A DNA stretch of 64,000 nucleotides from a virus (lineage: Duplodnaviria; Caudoviricetes). Below are positions 18,881 to 33,360 of this stretch, piece by piece. The translations under genes were made by a program, and so were the position numbers. The notes under the pieces were generated by a model. That model ran no database searches, was not told where the DNA came from, and saw nothing but the letters and a program-made list of their open reading frames with translations. Location: positions 19,803 through 83,802 of IMG/VR virus record IMGVR_UViG_2636415863_000002. The stretch is one strand, 5' to 3'. Position 1 is the first letter of the stretch, and every line of letters begins with the position of its first letter.

Positions 18881-18892
18881 TAAGGAGCTCTT

Positions 18893-19342: not shown

Positions 19343-19471
19343 GCCGTCGTGCGACCGAGAAGACGGCGCGTGGGACTGAGGGGCTGTGCTGCTCCCACGG
19401 GGCTACGGCCGTTGGAGGGGTTCTGCCCGAATTCACCCCCAACTGTGCTGTGTCCGGGGCATGATGCTGCT

Positions 19472-19654
19472 ATGGAGACGGTGTACACGGTCCTCGCGGA
19501 TTCGCGAGACACGGCGCACGAGAGAATCACCCGCCTCTGCCAACTCCTTGACCTGGCTCCGTTGGGCGGGCCGTCTGTGGTTCTCGGCCGCGGCCGTTGG
19601 CTGGCCCGCGCTGTCGAATCGAAGCGCCCCGCGGAGGGCGAGACGTCGTCCTGA
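19472..19654 (+). CDS. Hypothetical protein
   Basis: ATG at 19472; plausible codon usage. Confidence 0.45.
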   Translation: METVYTVLADSRDTAHERITRLCQLLDLAPLGGPSVVLGRGRWLARAVESKRPAEGETSS

Positions 19655-19712
19655 ACCTGGGCCGGGGGAATGCACGTCGGACAGGCGACAGTTTTCGTGC
19701 CACGGTCACAGC

Positions 19713-19907
19713 ATGACGAAGCAACTACCCCGGGAATGCACGCAATCCGAGTACCGCCGAATCCCGTTCCGCCGTTGCCCCGAGTGCGGGCATCGCTACC
19801 AGCCATCCTGGACGCCCGCCCCACCGGAATTCGAATCCGAGGCTGATCCGATCGGCGCTCTCGGCTGGGTCTGTCCTCGCGAGCTCTGCGGCCACATCCC
19901 CGAGTAG
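19713..19907 (+). CDS. Small Zn-ribbon protein
   Basis: CPECGH...CPRELCGH; followed by a hairpin. Confidence 0.45.
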   Translation: MTKQLPRECTQSEYRRIPFRRCPECGHRYQPSWTPAPPEFESEADPIGALGWVCPRELCGHIPE

Positions 19908-19983
19908 CCCGGACATAGAAGGGCCCCGCCGCGACGGGGGACGCGGCGGGGTCAAGTTCAGTTTGACAGACGGTCGGCGACTT

Positions 19984-20172
19984 TCAGGACCAAACAGTCG
20001 CGATCAGGAGCCGTTCGTAGTCGGCAGCGGTGACACCAAGGCTGGCGGCGACTTCCATCGCGGTGTTGGCGGCGCGCACTTCCGCGTACTTTGTCCCACC
20101 GTTGTCCAGTTGCTTGAAGACCTTGTCGAGGGCCTTGGCTGCGCTGTCGGCGGCGGATTCCTTGAGGCTCAT
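19984..20172 (-). CDS. Hypothetical protein
   Basis: AAAGGAA RBS, ATG at 20172. Confidence 0.5.
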   Translation of the reverse strand: MSLKESAADSAAKALDKVFKQLDNGGTKYAEVRAANTAMEVAASLGVTAADYERLLIATVWS

Positions 20173-20227
20173 CGGTGTTCCTTTCACAGTTCGCTGGTTG
20201 TTGACGGGGACATCGCCAGCTTGCTTG

Positions 20228-20545
20228 TCAGCGCCATTCCCAGGGCTGTCGGGCGTTGGCAGCGGCTTGTGCGGCGTTGGCGAGTTCGCGGGCGAGGTCG
20301 CCGAAATCGGGTGGCATTCGGCGGTGACTGGCGGCCTTGTGCAGGAGGCTCGCGATACGGCCAGCATCTGCGGCGGGAACGGAGAAGTACGCGTCGCCGT
20401 AGCGGTGGTTGAGCACTGGCGCCAGAGTCCGCCAGTCGCGGGCGGGCAATACGTCCGCGACTGCTTGGGCGAGGTTGGAGATGGTGGTGTACGAGCGGCA
20501 GATTTCGTTGTTCCGGTCGGTTCCGTGGAAGATGTTCCAGCCCAT
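20228..20545 (-). CDS. Hypothetical protein of actinomycete mobile elements
   Basis: AAAGGAA RBS; ends QPWEWR. Confidence 0.6.
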   Translation of the reverse strand: MGWNIFHGTDRNNEICRSYTTISNLAQAVADVLPARDWRTLAPVLNHRYGDAYFSVPAADAGRIASLLHKAASHRRMPPDFGDLARELANAAQAAANARQPWEWR

Positions 20546-20614
20546 TCAGGGTTCCTTTCGATGTGGAGGTGATGCGGGGCCCGGTACTGGTCGCTGGGCC
20601 CCGCCGAGAGACGG

Positions 20615-20848
20615 TCAGACCATGAGCCGGTATTCGTCGACCATGTCGCTGGTGTTTGCGAGGTACTTGACGGCCTGGTTCAGGAGGGTTCGACGCTTGG
20701 CGCCGGTGGAGCCGATGGCGCCGGACAGGTACGTCGCGGCGGTCTCCAGATCCTCCGCCCCGTTAATCCGGGCGTAGGTGCCGAAGTTGAGCGCTGCCGT
20801 CCCGAGCTGATTGATGAATTCCTCGGGAGTCTCGGGAGCGATGGTCAC
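20615..20848 (-). CDS. Hypothetical protein
   Basis: AAGGAG RBS. Confidence 0.55.
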   Translation of the reverse strand: MTIAPETPEEFINQLGTAALNFGTYARINGAEDLETAATYLSGAIGSTGAKRRTLLNQAVKYLANTSDMVDEYRLMV

Positions 20849-20893
20849 GGGCTTCTCCTTGATGGTCGGAGGGGTTTGACGGGTGGGTTGGAG

Positions 20894-21136
20894 TCAGTCG
20901 AGCTGGACGCCGTCGGGGATTTCGCCGGCGTGGAGGGCAGCGGCGATCACCCGGAAGTCGCGGGCATTGCGGCGGTGAAGGGGGACGGCGCGGGAGGCCA
21001 CCTGCCGTTCGGCGTCGCCGAGCTGCGGGTTCTTGGCGGCCTGTTCGCCGTCGCGGGCGGCTTCGTCGTAGCGCTTCGCTTCGGCTTCGAAGCGGTCAGC
21101 CTCCTGGTTCAGGCGGGCCCGGGAGTAGCGGGACAT
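20894..21136 (-). CDS. Hypothetical helical protein
   Basis: AAGGAG RBS. Confidence 0.55.
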   Translation of the reverse strand: MSRYSRARLNQEADRFEAEAKRYDEAARDGEQAAKNPQLGDAERQVASRAVPLHRRNARDFRVIAAALHAGEIPDGVQLD

Positions 21137-21154
21137 TCGGTCTCCTTCTGTGGG

Positions 21155-21379
21155 TTAGGCGGCTGACCGCTTCGGCGTCAGGTACTGGGCGGGGATCTGA
21201 TAGCCGGCGGGCGGCTCATAGTCGTCGGGTACGTCGCCGGGGCGCGGCCGACCGAGGCAGGCGAGGCTGCGCTTGCGCCAGTAGCTGGTCGGGTAGGCGA
21301 GGATCTGGAAAGCGCGGGCGAGACGGGCAGGGTCGGGCAGAGTCGCGGTGGGCTTATGGGCACGGTTTCGGCGGAGCAT
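21155..21379 (-). CDS. Hypothetical protein
   Basis: Operon position, AAGGGA RBS. Confidence 0.45.
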   Translation of the reverse strand: MLRRNRAHKPTATLPDPARLARAFQILAYPTSYWRKRSLACLGRPRPGDVPDDYEPPAGYQIPAQYLTPKRSAA

Positions 21380-21394
21380 GCGTTTCCCTTTCGG

Positions 21395-21976
21395 TTAGCG
21401 CCCTGCGTTGAGGGCGCGGTGGTGAGCGGCGGTGAGGAGTTCGACGGCTTGGTCGGGAGTGCGGCAGACGTTCTGGTTCCAGTCGCCGATGAGGGCGTTC
21501 CAGTGCCGCCCCCGCAGCTCGGTGAGGACGTAGCCGGCGGCCTGGTGGGCGGAGTCGACGGAGCCGACGCCGAGGGCTACGGCGGAGCAGATGGCGCCGC
21601 AGATGCAGCGGCGGCCTCGCCCGTCGCGGAGTTTGTGGGGCCGGTTCTGCCAGCCCCAGCGGCGCAGCACCTCGGCGGCGACGGCCAGTTGCGTGCTGGG
21701 CTTGTGGGAGAGGTCGGCCCGGGTGCGGTGTGCCCAGTCGGGCAGGGCGCGGGAGATGCGGCCGGGCAGCCGGACGTCGACGGCGGGCCGGGTGCCGTGC
21801 TCGGGCAGCGCGCGGAGGGCCTCGTCGACGAGCTCGGCGGTGGTCTTGGCCACGAGGCTGCGGGAGTAGCTGGCGGCGATGCTCGCCCACGCTGCCCGCT
21901 CGGGCTCGCTCAGGGTCGGGGCGATGCGCGCGGCGGCCTGATCGAGGGCGGCGGCGGTCAACGTGGACGTGGGCAT
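21395..21976 (-). CDS. DUF6197-like hypothetical protein
   Basis: L.RWGW.N...G.RCICGAI...IGDWN...RT.DQ..ELL motif. Confidence 0.55.
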   Translation of the reverse strand: MPTSTLTAAALDQAAARIAPTLSEPERAAWASIAASYSRSLVAKTTAELVDEALRALPEHGTRPAVDVRLPGRISRALPDWAHRTRADLSHKPSTQLAVAAEVLRRWGWQNRPHKLRDGRGRRCICGAICSAVALGVGSVDSAHQAAGYVLTELRGRHWNALIGDWNQNVCRTPDQAVELLTAAHHRALNAGR

Positions 21977-22055
21977 GGCGAGGTAGAGCTCCTTACTTGG
22001 TAGGTGAAATGCGGCTTATGCGGGGCGAACGGTGCCCAATATCTCCCGCTATGCA

Positions 22056-22173
22056 CCCCGGACGGGGCCCGGACAGGGGGTGGACGCGACCCGGGTCACG
22101 TCCGGGTGCCGTCCGCCCCCTGTCCGCCCTCTGACCGGGGGATATACCGGGGCAAACAGATCACTGTCCGGGG
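22056..22173. repeat. Candidate clt (cis-acting locus of transfer): 11-bp-phased GGAC/GTCC repeats in a dyad
   Basis: GGAC at 22060/22071/22082, GTCC at 22100/22111/22122/22166, central GACCCGGGTC palindrome; directly 3' of traB. Confidence 0.6.
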
Positions 22174-22176
22174 TGG

Positions 22177-24333
22177 TCAGGCCCCGTTGAAGAAGTCCAG
22201 CGCGTCAGCGATCTCGGCCCGCTGGTAGCCGTTGACGCGTCCGGTCTTGTGCGGCACGGTGATCTTCACGGTGCCGCCGGCCCCGGCTGCCCGCAGCAGC
22301 TCCCCCAGACGGTCAGCGGTCATGCCCCCGCCGATGATCTCGGCCATCTCCTCCAGCTGTGCGACATCACGGCCCAGGTCGTTCATCGCGGCGAGCGCGC
22401 CACGCAGCGCCTCCACCTGCCGCACCTGCGCAGCCGACAGATGCATGACCTCCCGCCCCGGCACACCGTCCCGCTTCGGCCCGCCGGCCGCCGACGACAG
22501 GCCGGTCGTGTTGAAGAGGTGCCTCTCGATCGCGTCATCCCACTGCCCGGCGAGACGCCCCGCCTGCTCGCGGATCTTCGCGGCCCGCTCCAGCAGCATG
22601 GTGATCTCGCCCCGCTCGTCCTCATCCAGGTCGAAGCTACGGGCCTTGTCGGTGACCCCGGCGAACGGGTTCACCAGCCAGCCCAGACCTGGCCGCGGCG
22701 GATCAAACTTGGAGGCGTCACGGCCCGCACCGGATGACCCCTTGCCGAGGATGGCGTTGGACTGGTCCGCGTTGTCCACACGCATCGCCCACTTGGTACC
22801 GCAGTTCATCGCGAGAGCCTGCGGGATCACATCGACCTCGGGGTACTGCGTGATCAGCACCATGAGGATGCCCGCTCCCGCAGCAACAGCAGACAGCCCG
22901 ATCAGAGCTTCCAGGATCTCTTCACGCAACGGCTTGCCCGGCCGCGTGTACGTGGCCAGCTCATCGATGACCAGCAGCTCCAGCCCGCCGATCTGCTCGA
23001 TAGCAGACGCCACAAGCTTGGACTTGCCGAGCCTGCCCAACTCCGCCTCACGCCGGTCCTTGTCCGCCAGCAGCCCCTTCAGCAGGGCGAGGAGCCGCTC
23101 GGGGCTGGGCTTGAAGTACGTAGAGGCGACCCCGGTCTTGGCGTATGCGTCCCACTCGCCGTTGTTCTTCCCAGCCACGATCCGCAGGTTGACCCGAGGG
23201 TCAAAGGCGGCGCCCACGATCAGGTTGGAAGCACCGACGCCCTTGCCCGAGCGGGTCATGCCCGCGATGACGAACGAGCTGTTATTGATGACGAGAGAGA
23301 CGATGGCGCCGCGCTTGTTCCAGGCGACGGGCACACCGTGCGTCCAGGCGTCGATGCCGCCTCGCATGGCCAGAAGGGGGGACGGGCGGGGCGCGGCGAA
23401 AGGGTTGGCGTCGGTCATCCACAGGGAGACGCGGCGTTCGGTGCCAGCCTTGGCGATGTCGACCATCGAGCTGTCGCGGCCGAGCGCCCCGGCGAGCGCG
23501 TCCAGTTGCTTCTGCAGCATGGCGACGGTGACGCGGGCGGGCAGGTCGAACACAGCGGTGGTGTTGCCGTCCGTACCGCGCTCCGGCGCGGCGAGGACCG
23601 TGATCTGCTCGCGTCCCTTGACGATGCCGATCTCGCGCAGCGCCGTGTCCAGCTCCTCCACGGTCAGCGCCGGCGGCGGCGGGGCGTCGAAGGCTCGCTC
23701 GACGGCAGCCGACACGGGGACCGCCCCGTCCTGAGGCACAGCTTCGATCTCCTGCTGGTTCGGCTCCTCGACATCATCCACCGGTTCGGGTCGGCCGTGC
23801 CAGACACCGAGAGCCATCGCGCCGAGCCCCATGAGGAGGTCGACGACGGGGCCGCCCGTGACGGCGCCAACGGTGGCGCCGGTCGCAGCGGCGGCGGTCC
23901 AACCGCTGGTCTTCGCGAGCATGATCCGCTTATGGCGCTTGTAGGCGGCACGCCGCTCAGTCACGAGTTCCCGCATCTCGGTCTCGCGATCCAGGTTCCC
24001 CTTGGAAGCGCGGAGAGCCTGACGCGCGGTCTCGATCATCTGCGGGTAATCGTCGCGCCGAGCTTCCATCCAGCGACGACCGAGTTGCTGGTAGCCGCGG
24101 ACGGACCAGCCGACGTACAGACGGTTTTCGACCGCGTGCCGCATCGCACGGTTGGACTGAATCCAGGTAGGCCGGACGGGCTCACCCTGATGCTCGACGA
24201 CCGCTCCTTCTACAGGCTGCGGCTGGTCCTTGACGAGGCTCAGATTCGGCCGGCGGATAGCCGGTTCGGTGCGCATGAATTCCGGGACGTCGAGGTCGGT
24301 CTGGGAGTCCGCGGAGGGGGTGTGAATAGCCAT
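22177..24333 (-). CDS. traB: TraB-like FtsK/SpoIIIE conjugative DNA translocase
   Basis: N-terminal TM pair, Walker A GMTRSGKG, Walker B LLVIDEL, ITQYP, C-terminal wHTH-like region (L.ELL...G...NGY.R). Confidence 0.8.
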   Translation of the reverse strand: MAIHTPSADSQTDLDVPEFMRTEPAIRRPNLSLVKDQPQPVEGAVVEHQGEPVRPTWIQSNRAMRHAVENRLYVGWSVRGYQQLGRRWMEARRDDYPQMIETARQALRASKGNLDRETEMRELVTERRAAYKRHKRIMLAKTSGWTAAAATGATVGAVTGGPVVDLLMGLGAMALGVWHGRPEPVDDVEEPNQQEIEAVPQDGAVPVSAAVERAFDAPPPPALTVEELDTALREIGIVKGREQITVLAAPERGTDGNTTAVFDLPARVTVAMLQKQLDALAGALGRDSSMVDIAKAGTERRVSLWMTDANPFAAPRPSPLLAMRGGIDAWTHGVPVAWNKRGAIVSLVINNSSFVIAGMTRSGKGVGASNLIVGAAFDPRVNLRIVAGKNNGEWDAYAKTGVASTYFKPSPERLLALLKGLLADKDRREAELGRLGKSKLVASAIEQIGGLELLVIDELATYTRPGKPLREEILEALIGLSAVAAGAGILMVLITQYPEVDVIPQALAMNCGTKWAMRVDNADQSNAILGKGSSGAGRDASKFDPPRPGLGWLVNPFAGVTDKARSFDLDEDERGEITMLLERAAKIREQAGRLAGQWDDAIERHLFNTTGLSSAAGGPKRDGVPGREVMHLSAAQVRQVEALRGALAAMNDLGRDVAQLEEMAEIIGGGMTADRLGELLRAAGAGGTVKITVPHKTGRVNGYQRAEIADALDFFNGA

Positions 24334-24344
24334 TAGTGGGCTCC

Positions 24345-25640
24345 TCAGATGGTCTTGTTAGCTGACTGCGTGTCGGCCTGTTCGCGGGCCGCCTGCTTCT
24401 TTGCGGCATCGCAGTACGGTTGCGTGTCACCGGCCCGCCTGAGGGGCGGCACGCCCCCGTTGTGACGCCGACCGTCGGGGGTCCCCGGGGCCTTCTTCGC
24501 GCCGGGCGCCTTTTGGGATCCCACCTGCGACGAGTCGCCCAGTACCGGCATCTCCGAGATGGTCTTCATACGGGCCTGCGCGGCCCTGCTCTGGGCCTCC
24601 AATTCGGGCCGCACGCCGACCACCTTGGAGCCGGTGACGCGGTACCAGGCGTCCGCCCAAATCTGTTCGGTGACCGTGGCCGAACCCCGCGCGGAGCGCA
24701 GCGCCTCGGCGACCTCCCACACGTCGGGGTGTTGCTCCTGGCGGTCCTTGTCCTTACGCGCTTGCTCTTCGTCAGCGCGCTTCTGCTGCTCGGCCTTCTG
24801 TTCGGCGGCTCGCATTTCAGCGGCGGCCTTTTCTGCCTTGACCTTCTCGCGCTCCTCTGTCTCCTTCTTCGCCTGGCGCTCGGCTGCACGCTTCTCCCGC
24901 CAGGACGGAATGCCGTCGGCTTTCTGTGCGATGCCGTGCTCGTAGGCCATCAGCACGATCGGGCCAACAAGGGACGCGATGGCGCCGACCAGGCCGGCGT
25001 TAAAGCCGATCGCTTCGTTCGTCATGCCGCCGCGCATGTTGATCGTGGCCGCGATTGCGGCGCCAAGCATGATGCCGACCCGGTATGGGGCGACGTCCCG
25101 CCGGTGGGCCACTGCCCACGCAGCCCCGCACGCCAGGACCAGGGCGATGCCCTCCAGCATGGCGGGCGCGGCGACCAGAAAGGGGCGGCGCTCGTCCCAG
25201 AAATCGAGGAACTGCACCGGGGCGGCGATGATGAGGCAGACGGCGTAGATGCCGCGGGCGCCCCACTTCCAGTACCGCTCGGAGCGCTCTTGCTCGGCCA
25301 GCTGCTGCGCCTCGCGCTCGGCCTCCTCCTCTTCGGCCTTCTTCGCCTTCGCCTCTTCGGCGTTGGACTTCGCCGTGTCGGCGGCCTTCTTCGCGAGGTA
25401 CGCCTTGTAGTCGGCCTTCTCCTTGCCCAGCCGCATCGCGGCGCGCTCGTTGGCGATGCGCAGCTTCTCGGCTTCCTCCTTCGCCGTGATCTTCTCGGCG
25501 TCTGCCTTGCCCTCGGCTTCGATCCGGCGGGCTTCCGCCTCGGACTCGGCACGGCTACGGATCGCCTCCGCCTCGGCCAGGGCAATCGGGTCGAACCGCG
25601 TGTCAGCAGCGGTGGCCTTGTCTTCGATGACGGTCGTCAT
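24345..25640 (-). CDS. SpdB/DUF2637-like spread membrane protein with coiled coils
   Basis: Four central TM helices flanked by charged coiled coils; directly upstream of traB. Confidence 0.6.
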   Translation of the reverse strand: MTTVIEDKATAADTRFDPIALAEAEAIRSRAESEAEARRIEAEGKADAEKITAKEEAEKLRIANERAAMRLGKEKADYKAYLAKKAADTAKSNAEEAKAKKAEEEEAEREAQQLAEQERSERYWKWGARGIYAVCLIIAAPVQFLDFWDERRPFLVAAPAMLEGIALVLACGAAWAVAHRRDVAPYRVGIMLGAAIAATINMRGGMTNEAIGFNAGLVGAIASLVGPIVLMAYEHGIAQKADGIPSWREKRAAERQAKKETEEREKVKAEKAAAEMRAAEQKAEQQKRADEEQARKDKDRQEQHPDVWEVAEALRSARGSATVTEQIWADAWYRVTGSKVVGVRPELEAQSRAAQARMKTISEMPVLGDSSQVGSQKAPGAKKAPGTPDGRRHNGGVPPLRRAGDTQPYCDAAKKQAAREQADTQSANKTI

Positions 25641-25675
25641 CGGGCTTCTCCTTCCTTACTGGTGGGGCGGGGCGG

Positions 25676-25894
25676 TTAGGCGGCGGTTCGGTAGTCGTCG
25701 TGGGCGGCGGCGGAGGCGGGCTTGCGGATGCGCTGCTCCTCGACCGCGCCGTCCCCTGCGATGCCGGCCAGGACAAGGACGGCGATCACGATGCGGATTC
25801 CGGGCGGTACGGACAGGCCCATGAACCAGGCCAGCCCCGCGATCAGTAAGGCGACCCGGGCTCGGGTCAGGCCGATCAAAAGTCCGTGACGCAT
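25676..25894 (-). CDS. Small two-TM Spd-like protein (contains a TTA codon)
   Basis: Hydrophobic; AAAGGA RBS; in-frame TTA at 25847-25849. Confidence 0.55.
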   Translation of the reverse strand: MRHGLLIGLTRARVALLIAGLAWFMGLSVPPGIRIVIAVLVLAGIAGDGAVEEQRIRKPASAAAHDDYRTAA

Positions 25895-25987
25895 GACGGT
25901 GTCCTTTGACAGGGGTGAGGGTGGGTGCTGCGTCGGATCTCCTCACCGCCGGTACGAGACCGGCGGATCGGGCTACCGACGAGCGGG

Positions 25988-26191
25988 TTAGCGGGCGGGG
26001 CTGAGCTCTTCGGCGTAGAACCCGCGGTGGCCCCTGACCGCCTCGGCGACTCGACCGTCGATGCCCTTCACAGTCATCAGGCCGCCGGACTTCGAGCCGT
26101 CGTCGACGACAACGCCGGTCTTGCCCTTCGCTGTGCGGTTTTCGCGGCTGGGGTTGGTGACGGTGACGCGGTCTCCCTTGCGGAAGCGCAT
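25988..26191 (-). CDS. Small SH3/KOW-like protein
   Basis: MRFRKGDRVTV...G.TGVVV...F...ELSPA. Confidence 0.55.
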   Translation of the reverse strand: MRFRKGDRVTVTNPSRENRTAKGKTGVVVDDGSKSGGLMTVKGIDGRVAEAVRGHRGFYAEELSPAR

Positions 26192-26286
26192 TTGGTGTCC
26201 TCTCGGTAGGCGGCCGGCTGGTCCGGCTCCCCGCGGTCCCGGCGCCAGCTGCGGTTCTGGCGTTGCTCCGGGGCCACAGGCAGCCG

Positions 26287-26619
26287 TTAGCGGCGGGCGA
26301 GACGCTTCTTCCGGCTGGCTTCTCGTATGGCAAGGACATCCGCCGGTGTGACGAGTACCTCGTCGTCCTGCTCGAACATGGCCCTGACGTGGGTGGGCTT
26401 GGTGTCGTACATCGGGCCGTAGCGCAGGCACACGCCCTGAGCCGAGTTCGCGCCGGACATCCACGAGCCGGTGATCGGCGAACGCTTATCGAAGACGTGC
26501 GAATCCCAGACCGGCTCTTCGCCCCACGGATTCACCGTGGTGTGGATCGTGTAGTAGGTCTTGCCGGGCACTACCTGCCGGCCGAACTTCTTGTAGTCGC
26601 CGGGCTCCCAAACAGTCAT
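26287..26619 (-). CDS. Hypothetical protein
   Basis: GAGGAG RBS; good codon usage. Confidence 0.6.
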   Translation of the reverse strand: MTVWEPGDYKKFGRQVVPGKTYYTIHTTVNPWGEEPVWDSHVFDKRSPITGSWMSGANSAQGVCLRYGPMYDTKPTHVRAMFEQDDEVLVTPADVLAIREASRKKRLARR

Positions 26620-26724
26620 GTCTGTCTCCTCAACTCGATGCGTGGATGGGTGGGGTTCACGTCTGGTCCGGCTGGCCGGCTCCCCGTCCCGCTCGGTGGT
26701 AGCCCGAGCGGGACAGGCATCCGG

Positions 26725-26886
26725 TCAGTCCTTCTTGGACTCCGAGCGGCCGGCGAGCTTGGCCTCGCGGGCTTTGGCCTCGTCCTCGGTTGTGAAGTGG
26801 ACCCAGGGGGTGTCTCCCTCGACCTGGTAGCGCGGCCGCGGAACGCCGTAGATCTCGCTGGGGACGTAGCTCTTGCGGATGGCCAT
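26725..26886 (-). CDS. Small hypothetical protein
   Basis: MAIRKSYVPSEIYG...; AAGGGA RBS; below the ORF-track length cutoff. Confidence 0.45.
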   Translation of the reverse strand: MAIRKSYVPSEIYGVPRPRYQVEGDTPWVHFTTEDEAKAREAKLAGRSESKKD

Positions 26887-26978
26887 GGGGTTCCCTTCGT
26901 CGGTGTGGTGTCGGTGTCGGTGCGTGCCCCTGCCTGCACTTGCGGCATACGTCCGGGAGACCGGGCAGGGGCTGGGGG

Positions 26979-27149
26979 TTAGCTGCTCTTGCGGTCGATG
27001 TCGTCGGCGACGCGGCGGGCTTCACGGGCGAACCCCTCGTGCATCTCCACGTCGGCGGTGTTGCCGGCCTTGCGGGCTTCGGCGGCGTATCGGTCGGCGT
27101 TCGCGGCGGCCTCGCGGTTGCCCTCGGCGGTGTCGAATCGGCTGCGCAT
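26979..27149 (-). CDS. Small helical hypothetical protein
   Basis: MRSRFDTAEGNREAAANA...; AAGGAGG RBS. Confidence 0.5.
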   Translation of the reverse strand: MRSRFDTAEGNREAAANADRYAAEARKAGNTADVEMHEGFAREARRVADDIDRKSS

Positions 27150-27161
27150 GTGATGCCTCCT

Positions 27162-27341
27162 TCAGCGGCTGGTGGTGCGGTGGGCGTTGATCTGGGCGGG
27201 GGTGGCGCCGGCCCGGACCGCGGTGCGGATCGCAGCCTGGGCGGCGAGTCGAGCGCCGGGCTTCGGCGCCTCACCCCGCTCGATCGGACCGAGGTAGGCG
27301 TCCGCCTGGCGGGCAGCGGCGAGGACAGCGGCGGCGGACAT
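27162..27341 (-). CDS. Small hypothetical protein
   Basis: Start overlaps the upstream stop (TGATG). Confidence 0.45.
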   Translation of the reverse strand: MSAAAVLAAARQADAYLGPIERGEAPKPGARLAAQAAIRTAVRAGATPAQINAHRTTSR

Positions 27342-27517
27342 CACGCGGCGGCCGGCTGACGGAAGCCGCGGATCTCGTCCATCAGCCGAGGACCGTCGGG
27401 ATCCGCCTGATCCAGGTCGAGGGCGGCCAGCTGAATGCCCAGCTGACGGTCCAGGTCGCCCTTGGCAACGGCGTCGCGGTACTCGTTCAGGTAGGCGATA
27501 CGGGTGTTCTCGGGCAT
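27341..27517 (-). CDS. Small hypothetical protein
   Basis: MPENTRIAYLNEYRD...; GAGGA RBS. Confidence 0.5.
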   Translation of the reverse strand: MPENTRIAYLNEYRDAVAKGDLDRQLGIQLAALDLDQADPDGPRLMDEIRGFRQPAAA

Positions 27518-27561
27518 GACGGTGGTCCTCTCGGAAGGTGTGGGTGGTGAAGAGGTACGGG

Positions 27562-27819
27562 TCAGGCGGTGGCCGGGGCGGCGGTCTCACCGCGGGAGAC
27601 GCGGGCGGCATCGAGGTACCGCTGCGCCTCGTCGAGATCGAGGTTCAGCTGGTAGCGACCGAAGGCGTAGGCGCTAACGTCCTGTGCGGTGACGTCAGCA
27701 GTGACGGGGTGGTAGCGGAGGGACTCCGGGCGACGCCGGTCGGCCACCTCGCCGAGGAGGTGGTGGGCGACACGCATGAGCTTCTGGTGACGCTGGCGGG
27801 CCTGGTACTTGGCGAGCAT
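27562..27819 (-). CDS. Hypothetical protein
   Basis: AAGGA RBS. Confidence 0.5.
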   Translation of the reverse strand: MLAKYQARQRHQKLMRVAHHLLGEVADRRRPESLRYHPVTADVTAQDVSAYAFGRYQLNLDLDEAQRYLDAARVSRGETAAPATA

Positions 27820-28400
27820 CGGACGAGTCCTTCCGGTTCGGGTCGGGGTGATCTGCGTGGGGAGTGGGTCTTTCAGGCGCGGTAGACGGGCGGACGGACG
27901 CCCGCGCGGAGTTCGCGGATGATCGAGCAGGGGCCCTTGGTCGCGCAGTACGCGTCGTCGGTGTCCGGCAGGGCGTTACCCGTGGTACCCCGCATGTCGC
28001 GGGTGGGATGAGGTGAGGTTGGAGAGCCGCGCCCGGGACGCCGGGGGTAGTCAGCCCGCAGGCGCGGCGGTCAGAGGGTTACAGCGACCCGCCGGGAGTC
28101 CGCTTCGGAAGCGGCGGCAGAGCGGGCGGAGGATCAGCCCGGTCGTGCTGAGGCTCAGGCTCAGACGACACCGTCACCGCCCCCGAACCGGCTGAACCGC
28201 ATACCGAGCAGCCGACTCATACGCCTCACGAGCCGCCCACCTGTACATGTCCAGCTGACCGTGCGACGGATGACGGGGATCGGCAGAGATCGCGACGATC
28301 CGGGCCGTAAGCCCGTCCCCGCGAATCTGCTCCGCATGCGCAAGCTCCGGAGCCACAGACGGATCCGAGTCGCCCGGGAACGGGGCAGGACAGGTAGCCA

Positions 28401-28751
28401 TCACGCCACCGCCAGAGCGGAGGCGTCGATCAGGTGCAGCAGGCCAGCCCGCTCCAGCACAAGCCGGGCTTCGACCATCGTGTCCTGCGCGAGAGCCAGG
28501 GAGTCGAACTGGGCGGCGGACATACCGCGGGCATCCAGGCCGGCCAACTCCACGACCCGCAGCGCAGCGACCTCGAAGCGCGTGACCGCACGCTGAACCT
28601 CCGGCGAGACCCGGACGTGCGAGCCGAACTTGTGGGCGGCGATGTCCGCCGCAGTCATGGCGGGGGTGGTGCTGGGGTAGCAGCCGGCCGGTACGGAAGT
28701 GGCGGTCGGGGCGCTAGCAGTACTACGCGGGACGCAAGTACTATCGGTCAT
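28401..28751 (-). CDS. Hypothetical protein, first gene of the leftward transfer operon
   Basis: AGGAGG RBS before ATG 28751. Confidence 0.55.
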   Translation of the reverse strand: MTDSTCVPRSTASAPTATSVPAGCYPSTTPAMTAADIAAHKFGSHVRVSPEVQRAVTRFEVAALRVVELAGLDARGMSAAQFDSLALAQDTMVEARLVLERAGLLHLIDASALAVA

Positions 28752-28789
28752 GTCTGGTCCTCCTGGTGATGCAGGTGGAACTGGGCGCC

Positions 28790-28899
28790 TCGGCAAGGTG
28801 TGCAACCACCTAGCCGGGATTGAGGCCCTTCCCGGTGTGCAACCACTGGGGAGGGCCGCTTCCAGCCCCGGCCTGGTGTGCAACCACCTGCCGGGGCTT
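28790..28899. repeat. Three tandem hairpins with identical GGTG-TGCAAC-CAC core
   Basis: GGTGTGCAACCAC at 28797, 28834 and 28875, each closed by its own different stem. Confidence 0.8.
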
Positions 28900-28933
28900 C
28901 GTTCGTCTTCGACACTAGAGGAGAACTTGCGTG

Positions 28934-28963
28934 TTGACAAGTACTGCCCACCGAGTGGAAAGT
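28934..28963 (+). promoter_or_regulatory. Housekeeping-sigma-type promoter, probably leaderless
   Basis: TTGACA at 28934, 18-bp spacer, GAAAGT, then ATG at 28971. Confidence 0.45.
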
Positions 28964-28970
28964 TGTAGCC

Positions 28971-29273
28971 ATGACCCCAGATGACGAGAAGGGGGGGATG
29001 CCCGAATTCGTCACCTTCACGCAGATCGCGAAGCGCGTGAACGAACAGGACCTGGTTAGCCGCCCCATCACTCGGCAAGGCGTCCGATACATCGCCGACC
29101 ACGACCCCGACTGGCCTGTCCCGCAGGACCGCTGGATGAAAATTGGCTCGGCCTGGGCAATGCCCTGGGAGCCGATCGAGAGGTTCTTCCGGGAGCGCAC
29201 CACGCCTCGCGGAAGAGGGCCGGTCGCCAAATCGGACGATGCGCCACCGAAGAGCTCCGAGCCGGAGCAGTAA
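28971..29273 (+). CDS. Putative HTH regulator of the transfer operon
   Basis: VTFTQIAKRV...ITRQGVRYIA..DPDWP; divergent from the tra/spd operon. Confidence 0.6.
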   Translation: MTPDDEKGGMPEFVTFTQIAKRVNEQDLVSRPITRQGVRYIADHDPDWPVPQDRWMKIGSAWAMPWEPIERFFRERTTPRGRGPVAKSDDAPPKSSEPEQ

Positions 29274-29403
29274 TTCTTCATGCCCCCAGCGCACCACCAC
29301 GCTGGGTCACGATCCAGATCCAGCCTGTTGTCAATCGGCAACAGGCGGATCTGAAAACACCAACCCCCTCCGCACCATTCGAATACGGCGACAGGATTGC
29401 GGC

Positions 29404-30606
29404 ATGACCTTCGGATCGGAGCTCCGCCACTACCGGCAAGACGCCGGAATGTCTCTCGCTGAACTCGCTTGCCGCGTCCACATGACTAGGGCCCACATCC
29501 ATAACGTCGAGACCGGGCGCCGCGCCCCGAGCAGCGATCTCGCCGCAGCGGCCGACGTAGCCCTCGCAGCATGTGGCCGGCTGGTCGCCGAGTTCGACCG
29601 GGAGGACCGGGAACGGCAACGGCAAGCCGCCACCCGAAAGACTCTCGCTGCTTCCCTCGCCACCTCGCGAGATCTGATGGCGCTGGCCGACCTGGAGCTC
29701 GATGAATTGCAGGCGGGAGTGGAGGAGACCGCGGTCGACTACCTCGGAACCGCGCCGGGCCCGATGCTGCTGCGCGCTGACTCGCTTCGCCGTGATGCCC
29801 TGGCGCGCCTGCGGGACTACAGGCACGGGCCGCACGAGCGAGCCGATCTGTACGTCTCCGCAGGACGACTCTCCGGCATCCTCGCCTACGCCGCCCTCGA
29901 CCTCGGCGACTCGGCAGCGGCGTTAGAGCACGCGCGGGCGGCCGGACGTTGCGCCCAGTACGCCGGCGACACTGAGCTGCTGATGTGGGTGCGCGGCACC
30001 CAGTCGCTGATCTCCCGCTTCGCCGGCGACTACGGCATCGCCCTCGACTACGTGCGAGACGGGCTCCAGTACGCCGGTGACGTGCCCGGCACCGGCGAGG
30101 CGCGCCTGCTGTGCGGCGAGGTCCAGTGCCTGGCGAACCTCGGCGACTCCCGGGCGGCGAACCGGACGCTGCGCCTTGCCGAGCAGGCGCGGGAACGCGT
30201 GCAGCGACCCGACAGCCTGACCGGTCTCTTCGAGTTTTCCGAGACGAAGCAGCGCTACTACGCCGCCAGCTCCCTGATCTGGCTGAACGGCGGCGACGAC
30301 GCGCGAACCGCGGCAACCGAAGCCGAGGCGGCAATCGCATCGTGGCAGCAGATGCCGCCCGAGCAGCGGTCCCTGGACGACGAGCGACTGTGCCATATCT
30401 ACCTGGCCACCGCCCAGGTGCAGCTCGGCGAGGTGGAAGCGGCCGCGGAGTCCATGGCCCCGGTGCTGGCGCTGCCGGTCGAGGATCAGATCAGTTGGAT
30501 CAACAAGCGGGCGCACCGGGTCGGCTCGATCCTCGCCGCGCCCCGCTACCACCAGTCTTCTGCTGCCGTCGATCTCCGGGAAGCCATCGCGGCCCTCGGT
30601 GCCTGA
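29404..30606 (+). CDS. XRE-family HTH regulator with TPR-like C-terminus (contains a TTA codon)
   Basis: FGSELRHYRQDAGMSLAELA...HNVETGRRAP; TTA at 29923-29925. Confidence 0.8.
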   Translation: MTFGSELRHYRQDAGMSLAELACRVHMTRAHIHNVETGRRAPSSDLAAAADVALAACGRLVAEFDREDRERQRQAATRKTLAASLATSRDLMALADLELDELQAGVEETAVDYLGTAPGPMLLRADSLRRDALARLRDYRHGPHERADLYVSAGRLSGILAYAALDLGDSAAALEHARAAGRCAQYAGDTELLMWVRGTQSLISRFAGDYGIALDYVRDGLQYAGDVPGTGEARLLCGEVQCLANLGDSRAANRTLRLAEQARERVQRPDSLTGLFEFSETKQRYYAASSLIWLNGGDDARTAATEAEAAIASWQQMPPEQRSLDDERLCHIYLATAQVQLGEVEAAAESMAPVLALPVEDQISWINKRAHRVGSILAAPRYHQSSAAVDLREAIAALGA

Positions 30607-30710
30607 GCAGCAGAAAGGCCGGGCGGTCATCACCCGCCCGGCCAGTTCGACCAGCGGGCTGCAACCCGCTGACCAGTAGAGATCCACACGCAAATGAGGA
30701 GAACTCTGCC

Positions 30711-31079
30711 ATGACTGTACTCGCTCCCGAGATTCCGTCCCAGACCAACCCAGCCGAGTGCCTGGTCTCACACCCGACCGCGTGCCCGTCGTGGTGTCGG
30801 GACCGTCACGCCCCCGTAGCGCACGAGTTTGGCCCGTCGGTGACGTCGCACTGGGGCGTGCAGGCCCGGCTGGACAATCCGGCGGCGTTCGGCGCCGGTG
30901 AGTCGTTCATGCGGGCGGAGCTGTACCGCTACGACGCCGGCTCGGAGGTCGGCGCCACCACGATGTACGTGCAGGGGCAGACCGACGTCGAGATGACGGC
31001 TGCGGAGGTGGACGTGCTCCTGGTCCAGGCGCAGGCGTTCGTGGACACGTTGCGGGTGTTGCGCGCGCAGATGGGCTGA
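30711..31079 (+). CDS. DUF6907-like hypothetical protein
   Basis: CPSWC...H...H motif; GAGGAG RBS. Confidence 0.55.
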   Translation: MTVLAPEIPSQTNPAECLVSHPTACPSWCRDRHAPVAHEFGPSVTSHWGVQARLDNPAAFGAGESFMRAELYRYDAGSEVGATTMYVQGQTDVEMTAAEVDVLLVQAQAFVDTLRVLRAQMG

Positions 31080-31218
31080 TCGCCCCGAGTTCCTCACGGC
31101 CGGGCAGCCTCAGCTGTCCGGCCGTTCTCAGTTCTCCCGCGGGTGCAGCACTCGCGAATCCTGGAGCGTCCATGCACGAAACGAGTCCTGCCGTGGGCCC
31201 GCTGATGGGGGCGGGCGG

Positions 31219-31992
31219 ATGCTGAAGATCCGCCGTTCGAAGCCCGTCGACAACTTCACCATCTTGCCGAACGCCCTGCTGCGCGACGATCGGCTGACGT
31301 ACTGCGCCCGCGGCGTGCTCGCTGAGCTACTGAGCCGCCCTTCGGGCTGGGAGACGAACGCGGACGCCTTGTCAGAGCGGGCGCGCCGGCACCGCGGGGA
31401 TGTCGTCGGCGAGGGGCGGCGTGGGTTGCGGGCCGCATTCACCGAACTGGAGGCGGCCGGCTACATCGTCCGTCGAAGGGAGCAGGCATCGAAGGGGCGA
31501 TTCATCACGGTCCTTGAGGTCTACGACATCCCACAGGACCGAGGTACCGCTCGCGGTACGTCGGCAGACGGTACGTCGGCCAGCGTGACGTCGGCGGGCG
31601 GTACCTCTTCAGTAAGTACTGACGGAGGAAGGACTGATGAAGAAGATGCTGGCGAAGAACACTCCTCCGCGCTCGCTGGCGCTCGCGCGGGCCAGCAAGC
31701 CGGCCCGCAAGATCGACGGCGCGAGCAGCTCAACCGGCTGTACGAGGCCGCCAACGACCTCGACGATGACCAGCTGCGCCGACTGCTCCTCCAGTTCGAG
31801 AAGAAGCGGCCACGGATCTACCGGGAACAGCGGCAGTCGGCCCTCGCGCAGCTGGAGCGGGAATCGCCAGAGATCCTGCGCACCGCGAACTCAGTACGCG
31901 CTGTGGACCTGTTGAGCTTCAAATACGCGCTGATGCACTACCAGGAGCCAGGCATCCCGGAGTGGCTACGCCGCTTCCCGCAGCCGCGATGA
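31219..31992 (+). CDS. Replication-initiator-like wHTH protein with internal 15-bp repeats
   Basis: NFTILPNALLRD.RL...ARG.L..LLS.P.GW...EL...GYI. Confidence 0.65.
   Translation: MLKIRRSKPVDNFTILPNALLRDDRLTYCARGVLAELLSRPSGWETNADALSERARRHRGDVVGEGRRGLRAAFTELEAAGYIVRRREQASKGRFITVLEVYDIPQDRGTARGTSADGTSASVTSAGGTSSVSTDGGRTDEEDAGEEHSSALAGARAGQQAGPQDRRREQLNRLYEAANDLDDDQLRRLLLQFEKKRPRIYREQRQSALAQLERESPEILRTANSVRAVDLLSFKYALMHYQEPGIPEWLRRFPQPR
31554..31610. repeat. 15-bp period iteron-like repeats
   Basis: CGGTACGTCGGC-type units at 31554, 31569, 31584 and 31599. Confidence 0.6.
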
Positions 31993-32037
31993 CACCACAC
32001 GGCCCTATCCGCACACTCACGAAAGGAACGATCACCG

Positions 32038-32343
32038 ATGGACGACATGATCCCGTACACCCACTGGGCGTACTTCTCCGACGAGGCCGGCGCCCGCCGC
32101 TGCGCCCAGGCCCTGCCCGACTTCGTGACACGTGTCCGCAAGGCGGCCGAGGGAGGCGAGTGGCTGCTGCTGGCCGGGCGGGACGTCGTCCGTGACCGTC
32201 TGCCGGAGCGGCACAGGGAGGTCGAGGAAATCGTCACCCGGCACGGCGGCAAGTACGACGGCGGCGAAGCCACATACCTCGGAACGGGACAGCCGGTCGC
32301 GGACCCGATGCTGATCCAGGATGGTGAGGGTGACGATGCCTGA
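32038..32343 (+). CDS. RraB-like (RNase E inhibitor fold) protein
   Basis: HW.YF..E..A...A..L...W...GG.YDG.E signature. Confidence 0.55.
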   Translation: MDDMIPYTHWAYFSDEAGARRCAQALPDFVTRVRKAAEGGEWLLLAGRDVVRDRLPERHREVEEIVTRHGGKYDGGEATYLGTGQPVADPMLIQDGEGDDA

Positions 32344-32734
32344 TCAGCCCATCGCCGCCGCCGTAATCGTTCGGGGCTGCCGCGTGCTGCTGGTACGCCG
32401 AGCGGTCGAAGAAGGCGATCTGCGCTGGCAGTTCCCGGCGGGCAAGCTCGAGGCCGGCGAGACCGCGGAGCACGCAGCCGTCCGTGAGACCGAGGAGGAG
32501 GCCGGGCTGACCGTCGAGGCGGTCAAGACGCTGGGCAGTCGTATGCACCCGAAGACCGGCCGACTGATGCACTATGTCGCTTGCTCCCCCGTATCCGGTG
32601 AGGCGCACGTAGCCGACGAGGAGGAGCTCGCCGAGGTCGCGTGGGTCGCACACGGCGAGATCCCCGAGTACGTGCCCTACGGGCTGTTCGAGCCCGTGCA
32701 GGCGTATCTGGACGGGGAGCTGAGTGAGACGTGA
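32336..32734 (+). CDS. Nudix hydrolase (Pif-like)
   Basis: Complete Nudix box GKLEAGETAEHAAVRETEEEAG. Confidence 0.9.
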   Translation: MPDQPIAAAVIVRGCRVLLVRRAVEEGDLRWQFPAGKLEAGETAEHAAVRETEEEAGLTVEAVKTLGSRMHPKTGRLMHYVACSPVSGEAHVADEEELAEVAWVAHGEIPEYVPYGLFEPVQAYLDGELSET

Positions 32735-32868
32735 GCGCTCCCCTACGGCGGCCTCCTTCACCGGCTTGGTCCGTCCTCATCCGGCCTGCGCGTCGGAATG
32801 GTGCGTTCCGCCTCGTGTGCGCCACCCTCGTAGACTCGCTGTGCCCACCCCGAGAGGATTGATCGCTG

Positions 32869-33360
32869 ATGCGCCCGCAGAGGTTGATGGAGTTTGTCGC
32901 CGAGACGCTGACCAATGCCCCCGAGGTGCAGCGCGCTGTGCCGTGGCAGGAGGGTGGCGTCCGGCCGTATGGTGTGCAGGTCACGTTCCTTACGGGCGCG
33001 GAGTTGTGGCTCGGGGTTATGGCGCAAGCCGCGCCCGGCGAGAGCTATGACGAGCCGGAGGTGCCGGTGACGGCGGAGCCGCCGGCGGAGGTGGCGGTGC
33101 CGGAGCTGCTGGAGGGCGGCAAGGTCACGCCCTTGTCGGCGGAGGCGTACATCGCCGCGGTGTTGACGAACTCGGGTAGCGCGGAGATCAAGCGGGCGTA
33201 TGGGTATTCGGAGGGGGCGACGATGACCAGGCCGACGTCGGCTCCGGGTGTCGGGCTGGAATTTCATTCGGCGGGGCGGGGCTTCTTGCCGTTCATTCAC
33301 ACGGCTCGGGCTGGCCAGGGGAAGGGCCGGCAGGCGTTCGATCTTCAGGAAGCGTTCTGA
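32869..33360 (+). CDS. Hypothetical protein
   Basis: Good codon usage; GAGGA RBS. Confidence 0.55.
   Translation: MRPQRLMEFVAETLTNAPEVQRAVPWQEGGVRPYGVQVTFLTGAELWLGVMAQAAPGESYDEPEVPVTAEPPAEVAVPELLEGGKVTPLSAEAYIAAVLTNSGSAEIKRAYGYSEGATMTRPTSAPGVGLEFHSAGRGFLPFIHTARAGQGKGRQAFDLQEAF

Follow-up and report, generated by a model that had tools for sequence, protein, structure and literature searches.

Among the described systems closest to the locus studied here, pSVH1 of S. venezuelae (NC_007431.1) is a rolling-circle plasmid of 12.6 kb that encodes its own Rep and a repressor of the GntR type, and pZL12, or phage ZL12 (GQ919031; Zhong et al. 2010, J Bacteriol 192:3747), combines a full tailed-phage module with a tra locus of the Streptomyces type on a single replicon. 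[quoted passage not shown] Directly upstream of the pZL12 late operon, on the same strand, lie an FtsK-like gene, a membrane protein gene, Nudix-containing small ORFs and a divergent regulator. The title of Chen et al. (2012, Plasmid 68:170) names pFP4 as a second Streptomyces plasmid-phage. The integrated, att-flanked AICEs, of which pSAM2 (Int, Xis, Rep, Tra, Spd, KorSA and Pif) is an example, encode an FtsK-type Tra, Spd proteins, a Nudix protein and an XRE or GntR regulator. Those in an AICE review measure ~11–23 kb and lack virion genes; the review presents Pif, a Nudix protein, as preventing redundant transfer, and reports an XRE–Nudix cluster common to several AICEs.

We compared with these systems a block of genes at 20228–32734 of a 64-kb stretch of DNA (the window, whose coordinates are used throughout) from an 8.65-Mb genome. 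As the original prediction had placed it, the block sits between the late and early genes of a tailed prophage: on one side the start of the late operon, with the large (10045–11679, minus strand; phrog_19179, E = 7e-154) and small (11666–12133, minus) terminase subunits, the former 68–69% identical to that of Streptomyces phage Kromp, and on the other the early genes (39057–61641, minus). Its G+C content is similar to that of its surroundings. A perfect 67-bp repeat pair at -21369..-21303 and 64180..64246, the only two copies in the genome, bounds an element of ~85.6 kb integrated at the 5′ end of a chromosomal amino-acid permease gene. The right-hand repeat, attR, lies 180 bp past the end of the window, where a 459-aa tyrosine integrase ends (62621–64000, plus; phrog_1, E = 2e-50), and the early genes include a protein like the Gp3-like recombination directionality factors (54455–55387, minus; Pfam Gp3-like, E = 2e-38). 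For the whole element, the expectation that there would be no second integrase failed, as the att repeats also enclose another tyrosine integrase gene beyond the window, at -17339 to -16302; it lies ~36 kb from the block, with the entire late operon in between.

The block itself has no significant direct or att-like repeats at its flanks, and Pfam, PHROG and NCBIfam searches found no recombinase among its proteins. Because it has neither, we think it rather likely that the block is part of the temperate siphophage genome, as opposed to an element of its own nested within that genome; the integrase and terminal att sites by which AICEs are recognized are absent from the block and present for the whole 85.6-kb element. 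As predicted, relaxase, T4SS and RepSA-type Rep families had no match in Pfam and PHROG scans of 94 window proteins, and neither did RepAM or Prim-pol; for RepSA, RepAM (DUF3631) and Prim-pol this also held among 28 flank proteins, and ParA and ParB had no match in the window or flank proteins. Post-transfer replication would therefore need phage functions or a 257-aa protein described below, which counts against the transfer reading preferred here.

At the centre of the block is a 718-aa protein (22177–24333, minus) that resembles a TraB-type, FtsK-like translocase of double-stranded DNA (the pump). It is 30.5% identical to pSVH1 TraB over 380 aa (E = 3e-33) and matches phrog_1358 (E = 2.4e-29). 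The best solved matches of its structure model are FtsK motor domains (E ~1e-10 to 1e-11, target TM-score 0.51–0.58), among them 2iut_A (E = 4e-11), with the conjugation coupling protein TcpA ranking after them. An alignment of 30 homologues shows no variation at the Walker A lysine K364, at D457/E458 of Walker B, or at G358 and R361–G365. Against a TraB-type assignment count scores below the Pfam FtsK_SpoIIIE cut-off (19.5 versus 24 bits) and far below that of the NCBIfam equivalog model plasmid_TraB (NF041214; 19.7 versus 800 bits); by sequence, the pump belongs to a different subfamily from the latter model. Also counting against the preferred reading, both the membrane anchor and the winged helix at the C-terminus are predictions only: the single hydrophobic segment (residues 157–175) falls in a low-confidence region of the model, and residues 634–715, modelled as a helix–helix–hairpin topology at pLDDT 77–94, gave no fold match for the region alone. 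A further point against is that in a collection of 50,697 isolated-phage records the pump had no close relative, only three weak matches in Bacillus phages. Its nearest plasmid relatives comprise 63 records, 54 of them from Streptomyces.

Immediately 3′ of the traB stop lies a clt-like locus (21977–22176) with four copies of CCCGGAC (at 22057, 22068, 22100 and 22166) and a palindrome, GACCCGGGTC, at 22088. The four copies fall within ~110–150 bp and form the densest cluster in the window, which holds 35 such sites in total. pSVH1 carries five copies of GACCCGGA at 8158–8256, just past its own traB stop; the CCCGGAC core overlaps this motif, and the two clusters are equivalent in position. GACCCGGA is reportedly the sequence recognized by pSVH1 TraB, and a literature passage mentions repeated 8-bp motifs. 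CCCGGAC recurs at the same place beside the pump in four related genomes, with six copies in G261, four in G273, three in G321 and two in G110, and more distant pump relatives have different repeated 7-mers there. The cluster, as repeated short motifs beside a tra gene, is thus a candidate clt.

The gene adjoining the pump, just upstream of traB, encodes a 431-aa integral membrane protein with coiled-coil flanks and three to four hydrophobic segments within residues 127–235 (24345–25640, minus), which appears SpdB2-like. A profile of its family (21 members) aligns with pSVH1 SpdB2 over 170 columns in hhalign (probability 96.2%, E = 2e-9), although BLASTP alone is not significant (E = 0.075). 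None of the 21 members matches Pfam DUF2637, nor does Pfam give any match for SpdB2 of pSVH1; source annotations label relatives of the protein SpdB2 or DUF2637. Past traB, the first gene encodes a 193-aa DUF6197 protein (21395–21976, minus; Pfam E = 1.5e-14) that is 34.8% identical over 155 aa (E = 1e-13) to the product of the gene right downstream of pSVH1 traB, likewise DUF6197. Divergent regulator, small ORFs, SpdB2, pump and DUF6197 gene thus stand in shared order in the two loci.

The leftward operon as a whole spans 28751 to 20228. Its distal end holds three small ORFs (20615–20848, 20894–21136 and 21155–21379, minus) and a DUF7739 protein gene (20228–20545, minus; Pfam E = 1.9e-31), homologues of which adjoin the pump in G023, G273 C17 and the circular sequence CP042280.1. 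Just upstream of the SpdB2-like gene is a 72-aa ORF (25676–25894, minus) with two membrane segments predicted by Kyte–Doolittle hydropathy; its homologues in G321, G370 and CP042280.1 likewise lie next to the pump genes. Codon-position GC supports eight further proximal ORFs (26287–26619, 26725–26886, 26979–27149, 27341–27517, 27562–27819, 27873–27995, 28174–28404 and 28401–28751, all minus), none with a family match; two of them, at 26287 and 27341, have homologues close to the pump in G261, G023 and CP042280.1. Of the small membrane ORFs originally proposed, the 72-aa one therefore stands, whereas the others have no predicted membrane segments.

The intergenic region upstream of this operon contains an operator-like array (28797–28887), in which the 13-mer GGTGTGCAACCAC occurs three times at spacings of 37 and 41 nt; these are its only copies in the genome. 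The first rightward gene, called at 28971–29273 (plus), encodes a 100-aa protein. A divergent HTH regulator had been predicted here, and the divergent gene is in place, but its product has no family match that would give it HTH character; its position suggests that it may be a regulator. Next comes an XRE-family HTH regulator with NsdA-like TPRs (29143–30606, plus; HTH_31, E = 3e-12; NsdA_fam_reg, 83.5 bits against a cut-off of 75), whose start is probably near 29404 and which has a 63% identical homologue next to the pump in CP042280.1. The 257-aa winged-helix protein (31219–31992, plus; phrog_1456, E = 1e-21) has no Pfam match; it resembles the N-termini of phage replication initiators (phrog_4707, 270 and 428, replication initiation protein) and has a 41% identical homologue at the equivalent position in G261. 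An RraB-like protein (32038–32343, plus; Pfam RraB, E = 6e-5) and a Nudix hydrolase (32321–32734, plus; Pfam NUDIX, E = 1e-22) complete the block. Nudix homologues lie 4–9 kb from the pump in three of eight relative loci (G321, G384 and G045), and pZL12.76c, in the tra region of pZL12, is also a NUDIX protein (E = 9e-27). The TraB-like pump, SpdB-like protein, XRE regulator and Nudix hydrolase of the original prediction are thus all present where it had put them.

A search of 400 genomes of the genus found seven carrying a pump at least 52% identical. In four of these (G273 C2, G321, G261 and G370), terminase, portal, capsid, tail and lysin genes follow 3–9 kb downstream, and their head families differ from that of the window (TerL of phrog_2 or phrog_9 versus phrog_19179). 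The circular CP042280.1 (92.6 kb) combines a 58% identical pump with packaging genes of the pZL12 type. In the comparison that had been proposed as a check, the pump thus lies next to virion genes in four of its seven closest relatives. Of 20 genus genomes sharing the terminase type of the window, only G273 C17, G341 and G360 have a pump within up to 20 kb upstream (less where the contig ends earlier), and the cassette is therefore optional, which counts against the preferred reading of a phage transfer cassette. Two other observations do so as well. In the close relative G023 the pump is followed by replication genes, with no virion genes among the ORFs of at least 200 aa within ~28 kb downstream; and in the window a toxin–immunity cassette with a 21-bp flanking repeat lies on the opposite strand between the tra operon and the late genes.

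These comparisons also bear on two other origins: the prophage might have captured the decayed remains of an AICE or plasmid, or the block might be an integrated element in its own right, with an excision of its own. The block does hold AICE transfer and regulation genes (Tra, Spd, XRE and Nudix) without Int or Rep, fragments lacking Int are classed as remnants in a passage of Ghinet et al. (PMC3218068), and the plasmids nearest to the pump are those of Streptomyces noted above. Its frames are intact, however, the catalytic motifs are invariant, the clt-like repeats are conserved along with the pump, flanking repeats are lacking, and the arrangement recurs in at least four prophages whose head modules differ, as well as in a circle of the pZL12 kind, all of which argues against these origins; we regard either as very improbable. 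We consider it probable instead that the block is a Streptomyces-plasmid-type cassette for transfer of double-stranded DNA belonging to a temperate siphophage, comparable to the tra locus of pZL12. The TraB-type parts, namely pump, clt-like repeats and SpdB2-like protein, look intact and conserved, and the element may also spread without virus particles. The original suggestion that it would thereby escape defences acting at the receptor is speculative.

We propose that in the lysogen the regulators would hold the tra operon off. Upon excision by the integrase at the 67-bp att sites, the ~85.6-kb circle would bear clt; TraB would bind the CCCGGAC repeats and drive the circle, still double-stranded and unprocessed, into an adjacent hypha, Spd-type proteins would carry it across cross-walls, and it would integrate again in the recipient. 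The Nudix protein may act as Pif does in pSAM2, preventing transfer among cells in which the element is already present. The same parts could instead serve the phage within one mycelium, with pump and Spd proteins moving phage DNA across cross-walls and not in mating, so that one entry event could lysogenise or lyse many compartments. Spread-type components (the SpdB2-like protein and small ORFs) do accompany the pump, passages in PMC2440964 and PMC4170104 describe Spd proteins as acting in intramycelial spread, and in the window, G273, G321, G370 and pZL12 the cassette lies just upstream of the late operon in the same orientation. The present data do not separate intramycelial from intermycelial movement, as the same plasmid proteins do both, but the divergent regulators, operator array and Nudix gene resemble the kil–kor and Pif logic of conjugative elements, and we give purely intramycelial use a minor share of the probability.

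Size raises a different alternative, that the prophage is overgrown and packaging-defective, its tra genes being accreted cargo, either unused or the sole remaining route of a phage becoming AICE-like. Against its ~85.6 kb, Kromp (capsid 57% identical) measures 58.3 kb and G273 C17 (75%) ~63.8 kb, the latter size being tentative as its repeat is 86% identical over 44 bp, and repeat-bounded relatives with the same terminase type reach 38.0 kb (G341) and 41.3 kb (G308). The extra cargo consists of the toxin–immunity cassette, a 9-kb rightward block at 29–38 kb and the second integrase. Being 34–47% larger than its capsid relatives, the element may not be packaged, and this part of the original conjugative-prophage idea, spread as virions, is accordingly in doubt, whereas the module does appear to belong to the prophage. 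Yet all virion genes examined (tape measure of 1794 aa, Dit, portal, capsid, terminase and endolysin) are full-length open frames, the larger pZL12 forms particles to judge by its record name and paper title, and sequence cannot give capsid capacity; a packaging defect thus seems unlikely to us. Size also counts against the transfer reading, the circle being far bigger than the plasmids for which movement by TraB alone has been demonstrated, though pZL12 has 90 kb.

Measured against the systems introduced above, the element shares its head module with Kromp (MH744420.1, 58,268 bp), in the same order from small terminase subunit to head–tail adaptor and with identities of 69% (TerL), 57% (portal) and 57% (capsid). 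Kromp is 27 kb smaller and lacks homologues of the pump, Spd and Nudix proteins, and apart from WhiB its tail and early genes show no similarity to those of the element at E 1e-3. AICEs are alike in being integrated and att-flanked, in their FtsK-type Tra, Spd, regulator and Nudix genes and, for pSAM2, in linking a Nudix domain protein to a TraB-type module, a likeness to Pif at the level of the domain; the element differs in its complete virion module, and none of the AICE Rep types was found in it. With pSVH1 it has in common gene order, pump, SpdB2 and DUF6197 homologues and repeats 3′ of traB, but it is an 85.6-kb prophage without such a Rep. With pZL12 it shares a virion module, a tra locus upstream of the late operon and a similar size, while the element is integrated between att repeats, its regulator is XRE/TPR and not GntR, the head genes are unrelated, and the weak link between the two pumps (hhalign probability 20.5%) counts against the parallel. 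The idea of a phage with plasmid-type transfer is thus not new in kind, pZL12 being a precedent with the same layout; what is new here is the clt-like CCCGGAC cluster, the collinearity with pSVH1 that extends to DUF6197, and the unique 13-mer present three times in the divergent region.

The candidate conjugation block (20228-32734) lies between the late and early phage genes, and what the original prediction had placed there, a TraB-like pump with an Spd-like protein, regulators and a Nudix hydrolase, is indeed encoded at that position. On the minus strand from 28751, eight small ORFs are followed by a 72-amino-acid (aa) protein with two hydrophobic segments, a 431-aa membrane protein (24345-25640) and a 718-aa FtsK-like protein (22177-24333, hereafter the pump), downstream of which come a 200-bp gap, a DUF6197 protein, three small ORFs and a DUF7739 protein. 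The rightward genes encode a 100-aa protein, an XRE/NsdA-like TPR regulator, a 257-aa winged-helix protein similar to the N-termini of phage replication initiators, an RraB-like protein and the Nudix hydrolase. A scan of 12000-31500 for sigma-70 promoters and terminators returned no promoter-like sites and 11 terminator-like ones (8.2 expected), and 14 window proteins of unknown family gave no usable match to Pfam at lenient thresholds.

The pump aligned with TraB of the Streptomyces venezuelae plasmid pSVH1 at 30.5% identity over 380 aa (E = 3e-33). Curated models matched it weakly (Pfam, 19.5 bits; NCBIfam plasmid_TraB, 19.7 bits against a cut-off of 800), and the Walker A lysine and the Walker B aspartate-glutamate pair were invariant across 30 pump homologues. 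Its AlphaFold2 model (mean pLDDT 68.9, with a confident core) first matched FtsK motor domains, at E about 1e-10 to 1e-11, and next the conjugation coupling protein TcpA. No close relatives of the pump were found among isolated phages, which yielded only three weak Bacillus phage matches. The likeness to pSVH1 extends to gene order, which in that plasmid runs divergent regulator, small ORFs, SpdB2, small ORF, TraB and a 198-aa protein, and with which the block is collinear. A profile of the 431-aa protein family matched pSVH1 SpdB2 with a probability of 96.2% (E = 2e-9); the two proteins gave no significant BLASTP match, and none of 21 family members matched Pfam DUF2637. The protein after the pump resembles the one after pSVH1 TraB (E = 1e-13), with DUF6197 in both.

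Directly past its traB stop at 8142, pSVH1 carries five copies of GACCCGGA within 8158-8256, the 8-mer that serves as TraB recognition sequence. An excerpt of a published study describes repeated 8-bp motifs as read by the C-terminal winged helix (PMC3583192). The window has four copies of CCCGGAC at the corresponding place, spread over about 110 bp of the gap that follows traB, together with the palindrome GACCCGGGTC; the heptamer has 35 sites in the 64 kb and at most three in any other 150-bp stretch. Within 500 nt around the traB stop of related pumps from the same genus, CCCGGAC occurs six times in genome G261, four times in G273, three times in G321 and twice in G110, and more distant pumps have different repeated 7-mers at that position. 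This pattern fits pumps and putative clt-like sites (clt being the cis-acting site read by TraB) changing together. Elsewhere in the block, the 218-bp divergent region contains GGTGTGCAACCAC three times, spaced by 37 and 41 nt; these are the only copies in the 8.65-Mb genome, and the triplet looks like a putative operator array.

We then delimited the mobile unit. Genes of the window (G000:C26:278481-342480; G+C 0.64-0.73) were called via codon-position G+C, and 94 proteins were scanned against Pfam and PHROGs, with NCBIfam added for the central part. A siphophage late operon (277-12133, minus strand) encodes tail tube, head-tail adaptor, major capsid, protease, portal and the large and small terminase subunits. 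Early genes occupy 39057-61641 (minus strand; WYL, GIY-YIG, C5 methylase, HNH nucleases, WhiB, a Gp3-like factor, exonuclease and DUF5131), and a tyrosine integrase was found by the Pfam/PHROGs scan at 62621-64000 (plus strand). The early region also includes the sole tRNA of the window, a tRNA-Leu (anticodon TAA; 52242-52318, minus strand) beside the WhiB gene, and a 37-nt direct repeat, 89% identical, in two intergenic gaps (39602-39638 and 40688-40723), possibly a regulatory element or a terminator present in two copies. A perfect 67-bp direct repeat, with two copies only in the genome, lies at -21369..-21303, overlapping the 5' end of an amino-acid permease gene, and at 64180..64246, 180 bp beyond the integrase stop (negative coordinates being left of the window). 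Between the left copy and the window are virion and lysis genes (a 1794-aa tape measure, Dit, minor tail proteins, a peptidase and a GH25 endolysin) and, further left, genes for a HAD hydrolase, a 431-aa XRE regulator, DUF6415, a tyrosine integrase, DUF6233 and a GntR/UTRA regulator.

The integrase in this left segment (345 aa; -17339..-16302, plus strand; locus L083:6661-7698; Pfam E = 4e-15) is likewise enclosed by the 67-bp att pair and falls in the stretch from attL to the lysis genes, adjoining the DUF6415, XRE and GntR/UTRA genes. The claim that there is no second integrase thus stands for the block, which has no recombinase, but not for the element. The segment could have been a tandem second element, yet related prophages bounded by repeats (G273 contig C17 and G308) carry homologues of its GntR and XRE genes at their lysis ends, which rules this out and assigns the segment to the phage backbone. 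Given the positions of the 67-bp repeats and the genes that they enclose, the mobile unit is about 85.6 kb long with two integrases, and from its sequence it looks complete as a prophage. A search of 40 relatives for the two flanking host genes found permease orthologues in six genomes and no orthologue of the right-flank gene at E 1e-100, so an empty site was not demonstrable.

The block could nonetheless be an independent element nested within the prophage. Pfam, PHROGs and NCBIfam scans detected no recombinase in it, and no att-like repeats beyond chance flanked it within 11000-41000 or across the whole element; it is not a separate att-bounded unit, in keeping with the original prediction. 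We also searched 400 other genomes of the genus for the pump, which had matches in 62 at E 1e-20 and in seven at 52-69% identity, and surveyed the loci of these seven. On G273 contig C2, the order is integrase, early genes, pump, DUF6197, terminase, portal and scaffold, and in G321 and G370 the pump is followed in turn by terminase, protease, capsid, tail, tape measure, lysin and integrase. In G261, portal, terminase, capsid, tape measure and tail genes lie 7-9 kb downstream, partly inverted. The G023 locus encodes a primase, a helicase and an exonuclease, and over about 28 kb none of its ORFs of at least 200 aa is a virion gene; the pump contigs of G110 and G090 are too short to judge context. 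The expected placement of the pump beside virion genes in related prophages was thus borne out in four genomes (G273 C2, G321, G370 and G261). Terminase and capsid families varied among these loci (phrog_2, phrog_9 and phrog_10) and were distinct from those of the window (phrog_19179 and phrog_1357). The best plasmid match, the unannotated circular CP042280.1 (92.6 kb), encodes a 58% identical pump, a 63% identical XRE/TPR regulator, DUF7739, DUF6197, early-gene homologues and pZL12-type packaging genes (57-73% identity). Taken together, the block is best described, by sequence comparison, as a putative pSVH1-like TraB-clt-Spd cassette that is part of a temperate phage genome.

Conversely, the terminase large subunit was searched against the same 400 genomes, giving 20 matches; identity was 58-70% in 19 of them and 37% in the last, which has an internal stop. 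By BLAST and a profile from the 30-sequence alignment, a pump was present in only three of the 20 (G273 C17, G341 and G360), over a span of up to 20 kb upstream of the terminase that was shorter where a contig ended sooner. Upstream of the G060 terminase there was only a membrane protein like pZL12 73c, and at most matching loci the junction was short and included a homologue of window 16421-17134. This count, together with the varied head families, indicates that within this head lineage the cassette is an optional part, although it recurs across head lineages. Its parts have themselves been exchanged, since locus L055 of G045, laid out as in the window with homologues of 12905, 16421, the pump, the SpdB2-like protein and the Nudix hydrolase, has an SpdB2-like protein 64% identical and a pump 36% identical. 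G273 harbours two distinct pump-bearing prophages. In that on C2 (L044-L046) the pump is 58% identical and the terminase distant (28%); that on C17 (L063, L086-L090) has the more divergent pump, with a capsid protein at 75% identity and a terminase like that of Streptomyces phage Kromp (68%).

Kromp, the closest isolated phage, has a genome of 58,268 bp and shares only the head module (TerL 69%, portal 57% and capsid 57% identity, 440 versus 446 aa). The G273 C17 prophage, which combines the 75% identical capsid protein with a tra cassette, is bounded by 44-bp repeats (86% identity) 63.8 kb apart; perfect 46-bp repeats in G341 are 38.0 kb apart and 53-bp repeats in G308 41.3 kb apart. At 85.6 kb, the element is 34-47% above the size of the two relatives with the most similar capsids, which puts whole-genome packaging in question.

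Two further gene pairs were noted in the window. Between the tra operon and the late genes, on the opposite strand, lies one such pair (17225-19342, plus), flanked on both sides by copies of a perfect 21-bp direct repeat (17093-17113 and 19364-19384). Its first gene encodes 551 aa, with a WXG100-like region and, at the C-terminus, a Tox-REase-2 nuclease domain (E = 1e-30); the second, of 149 aa, is a probable immunity gene. The other pair belongs to the rightward cargo block (34589-35617, plus) and encodes an antitoxin-like protein with a SocA/Panacea domain (E = 3e-14) and, after it, a 151-aa protein whose C-terminus weakly matches the MAG6450 family; it is possibly a toxin-antitoxin or defence pair. 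Contigs from RNA libraries, which inform on presence and not on level, strand or ends, placed the early region in eight RNA-seq runs of one organism. Two runs of one study (X1 and X3) each held one identical 58,350-nt contig covering 14001-34000 without difference; it looks like DNA carry-over or the source strain, and is therefore no proof of transcription. If collinear with the genome, this contig ends near 37017 and inside attL (about -21332), where the assembly may have broken at the 67-bp repeat. Short separate contigs of run X7 cover, among others, 17302-19895, which overlaps the Tox-REase-2/immunity pair, 19967-20872, 22523-23092 and 31628-33220. Bins without coverage and a lone joint in run X5, one side of which had 21 letters, were left out of account.

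A wider reading, which we consider rather improbable, is that many Streptomyces temperate phages of any head type keep a TraB-clt-Spd cassette through which they can also spread without particles, and that this element, a third or more beyond its capsid relatives' size, may move mainly or only by conjugation. Were this true, the element would be a living intermediate between phages and AICEs (actinomycete integrative and conjugative elements), relevant to the old proposal of phage-derived AICE modules. If the excised prophage moves via the TraB pump, hyphal contact could spread lysogeny in Streptomyces, by a route that depends on neither receptors nor adsorption nor particle stability. Models of gene flow in soil actinomycetes and of phage host range would then have to take this route into account. 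The element is directly testable, because pump, probable docking site and terminase can be removed one by one.

The nearest known system is the Streptomyces plasmid-phage pZL12 (phage ZL12; GQ919031), a circular replicon of 90,435 bp with ParA and ParB. Its late operon is immediately preceded, in the same orientation, by the FtsK/SpoIIIE-like gene 71c, a 766-aa gene, a membrane protein and small ORFs including the NUDIX protein 76c (E = 9e-27), and by a divergent GntR regulator. Later work from the group that described pZL12 cites it as being transferred by means of one major tra gene and two genes next to it. The window pump had no BLAST match to 71c at E 1e-3 and a weak one by profile comparison (probability 20.5%). 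Among the few proteins common to both is the C5 cytosine methylase (44597-45910, minus strand), 38-40% identical to the adjacent pZL12 methylases 27c and 28c. Excerpts of two reports describe pSLE1 (86.4 kb) as syntenic with pZL12 and having two integrase genes (PMC4487206), and pZL12 as a singleton extrachromosomal temperate phage (PMC7157519). Full-text searches of a limited literature collection found no description of a TraB-type module in an integrated prophage, and in passages from two AICE surveys prophages appear only as exclusions or module sources. By gene content and order the block is the apparent counterpart, in an integrated setting, of the pZL12 tra locus, a precedent from 2010 that limits the value of the element. 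The present analysis adds an integrated case with a putative pSVH1-like clt, evidence for a cassette that is optional within one head lineage and recurrent across several, and an element size that puts packaging in question.
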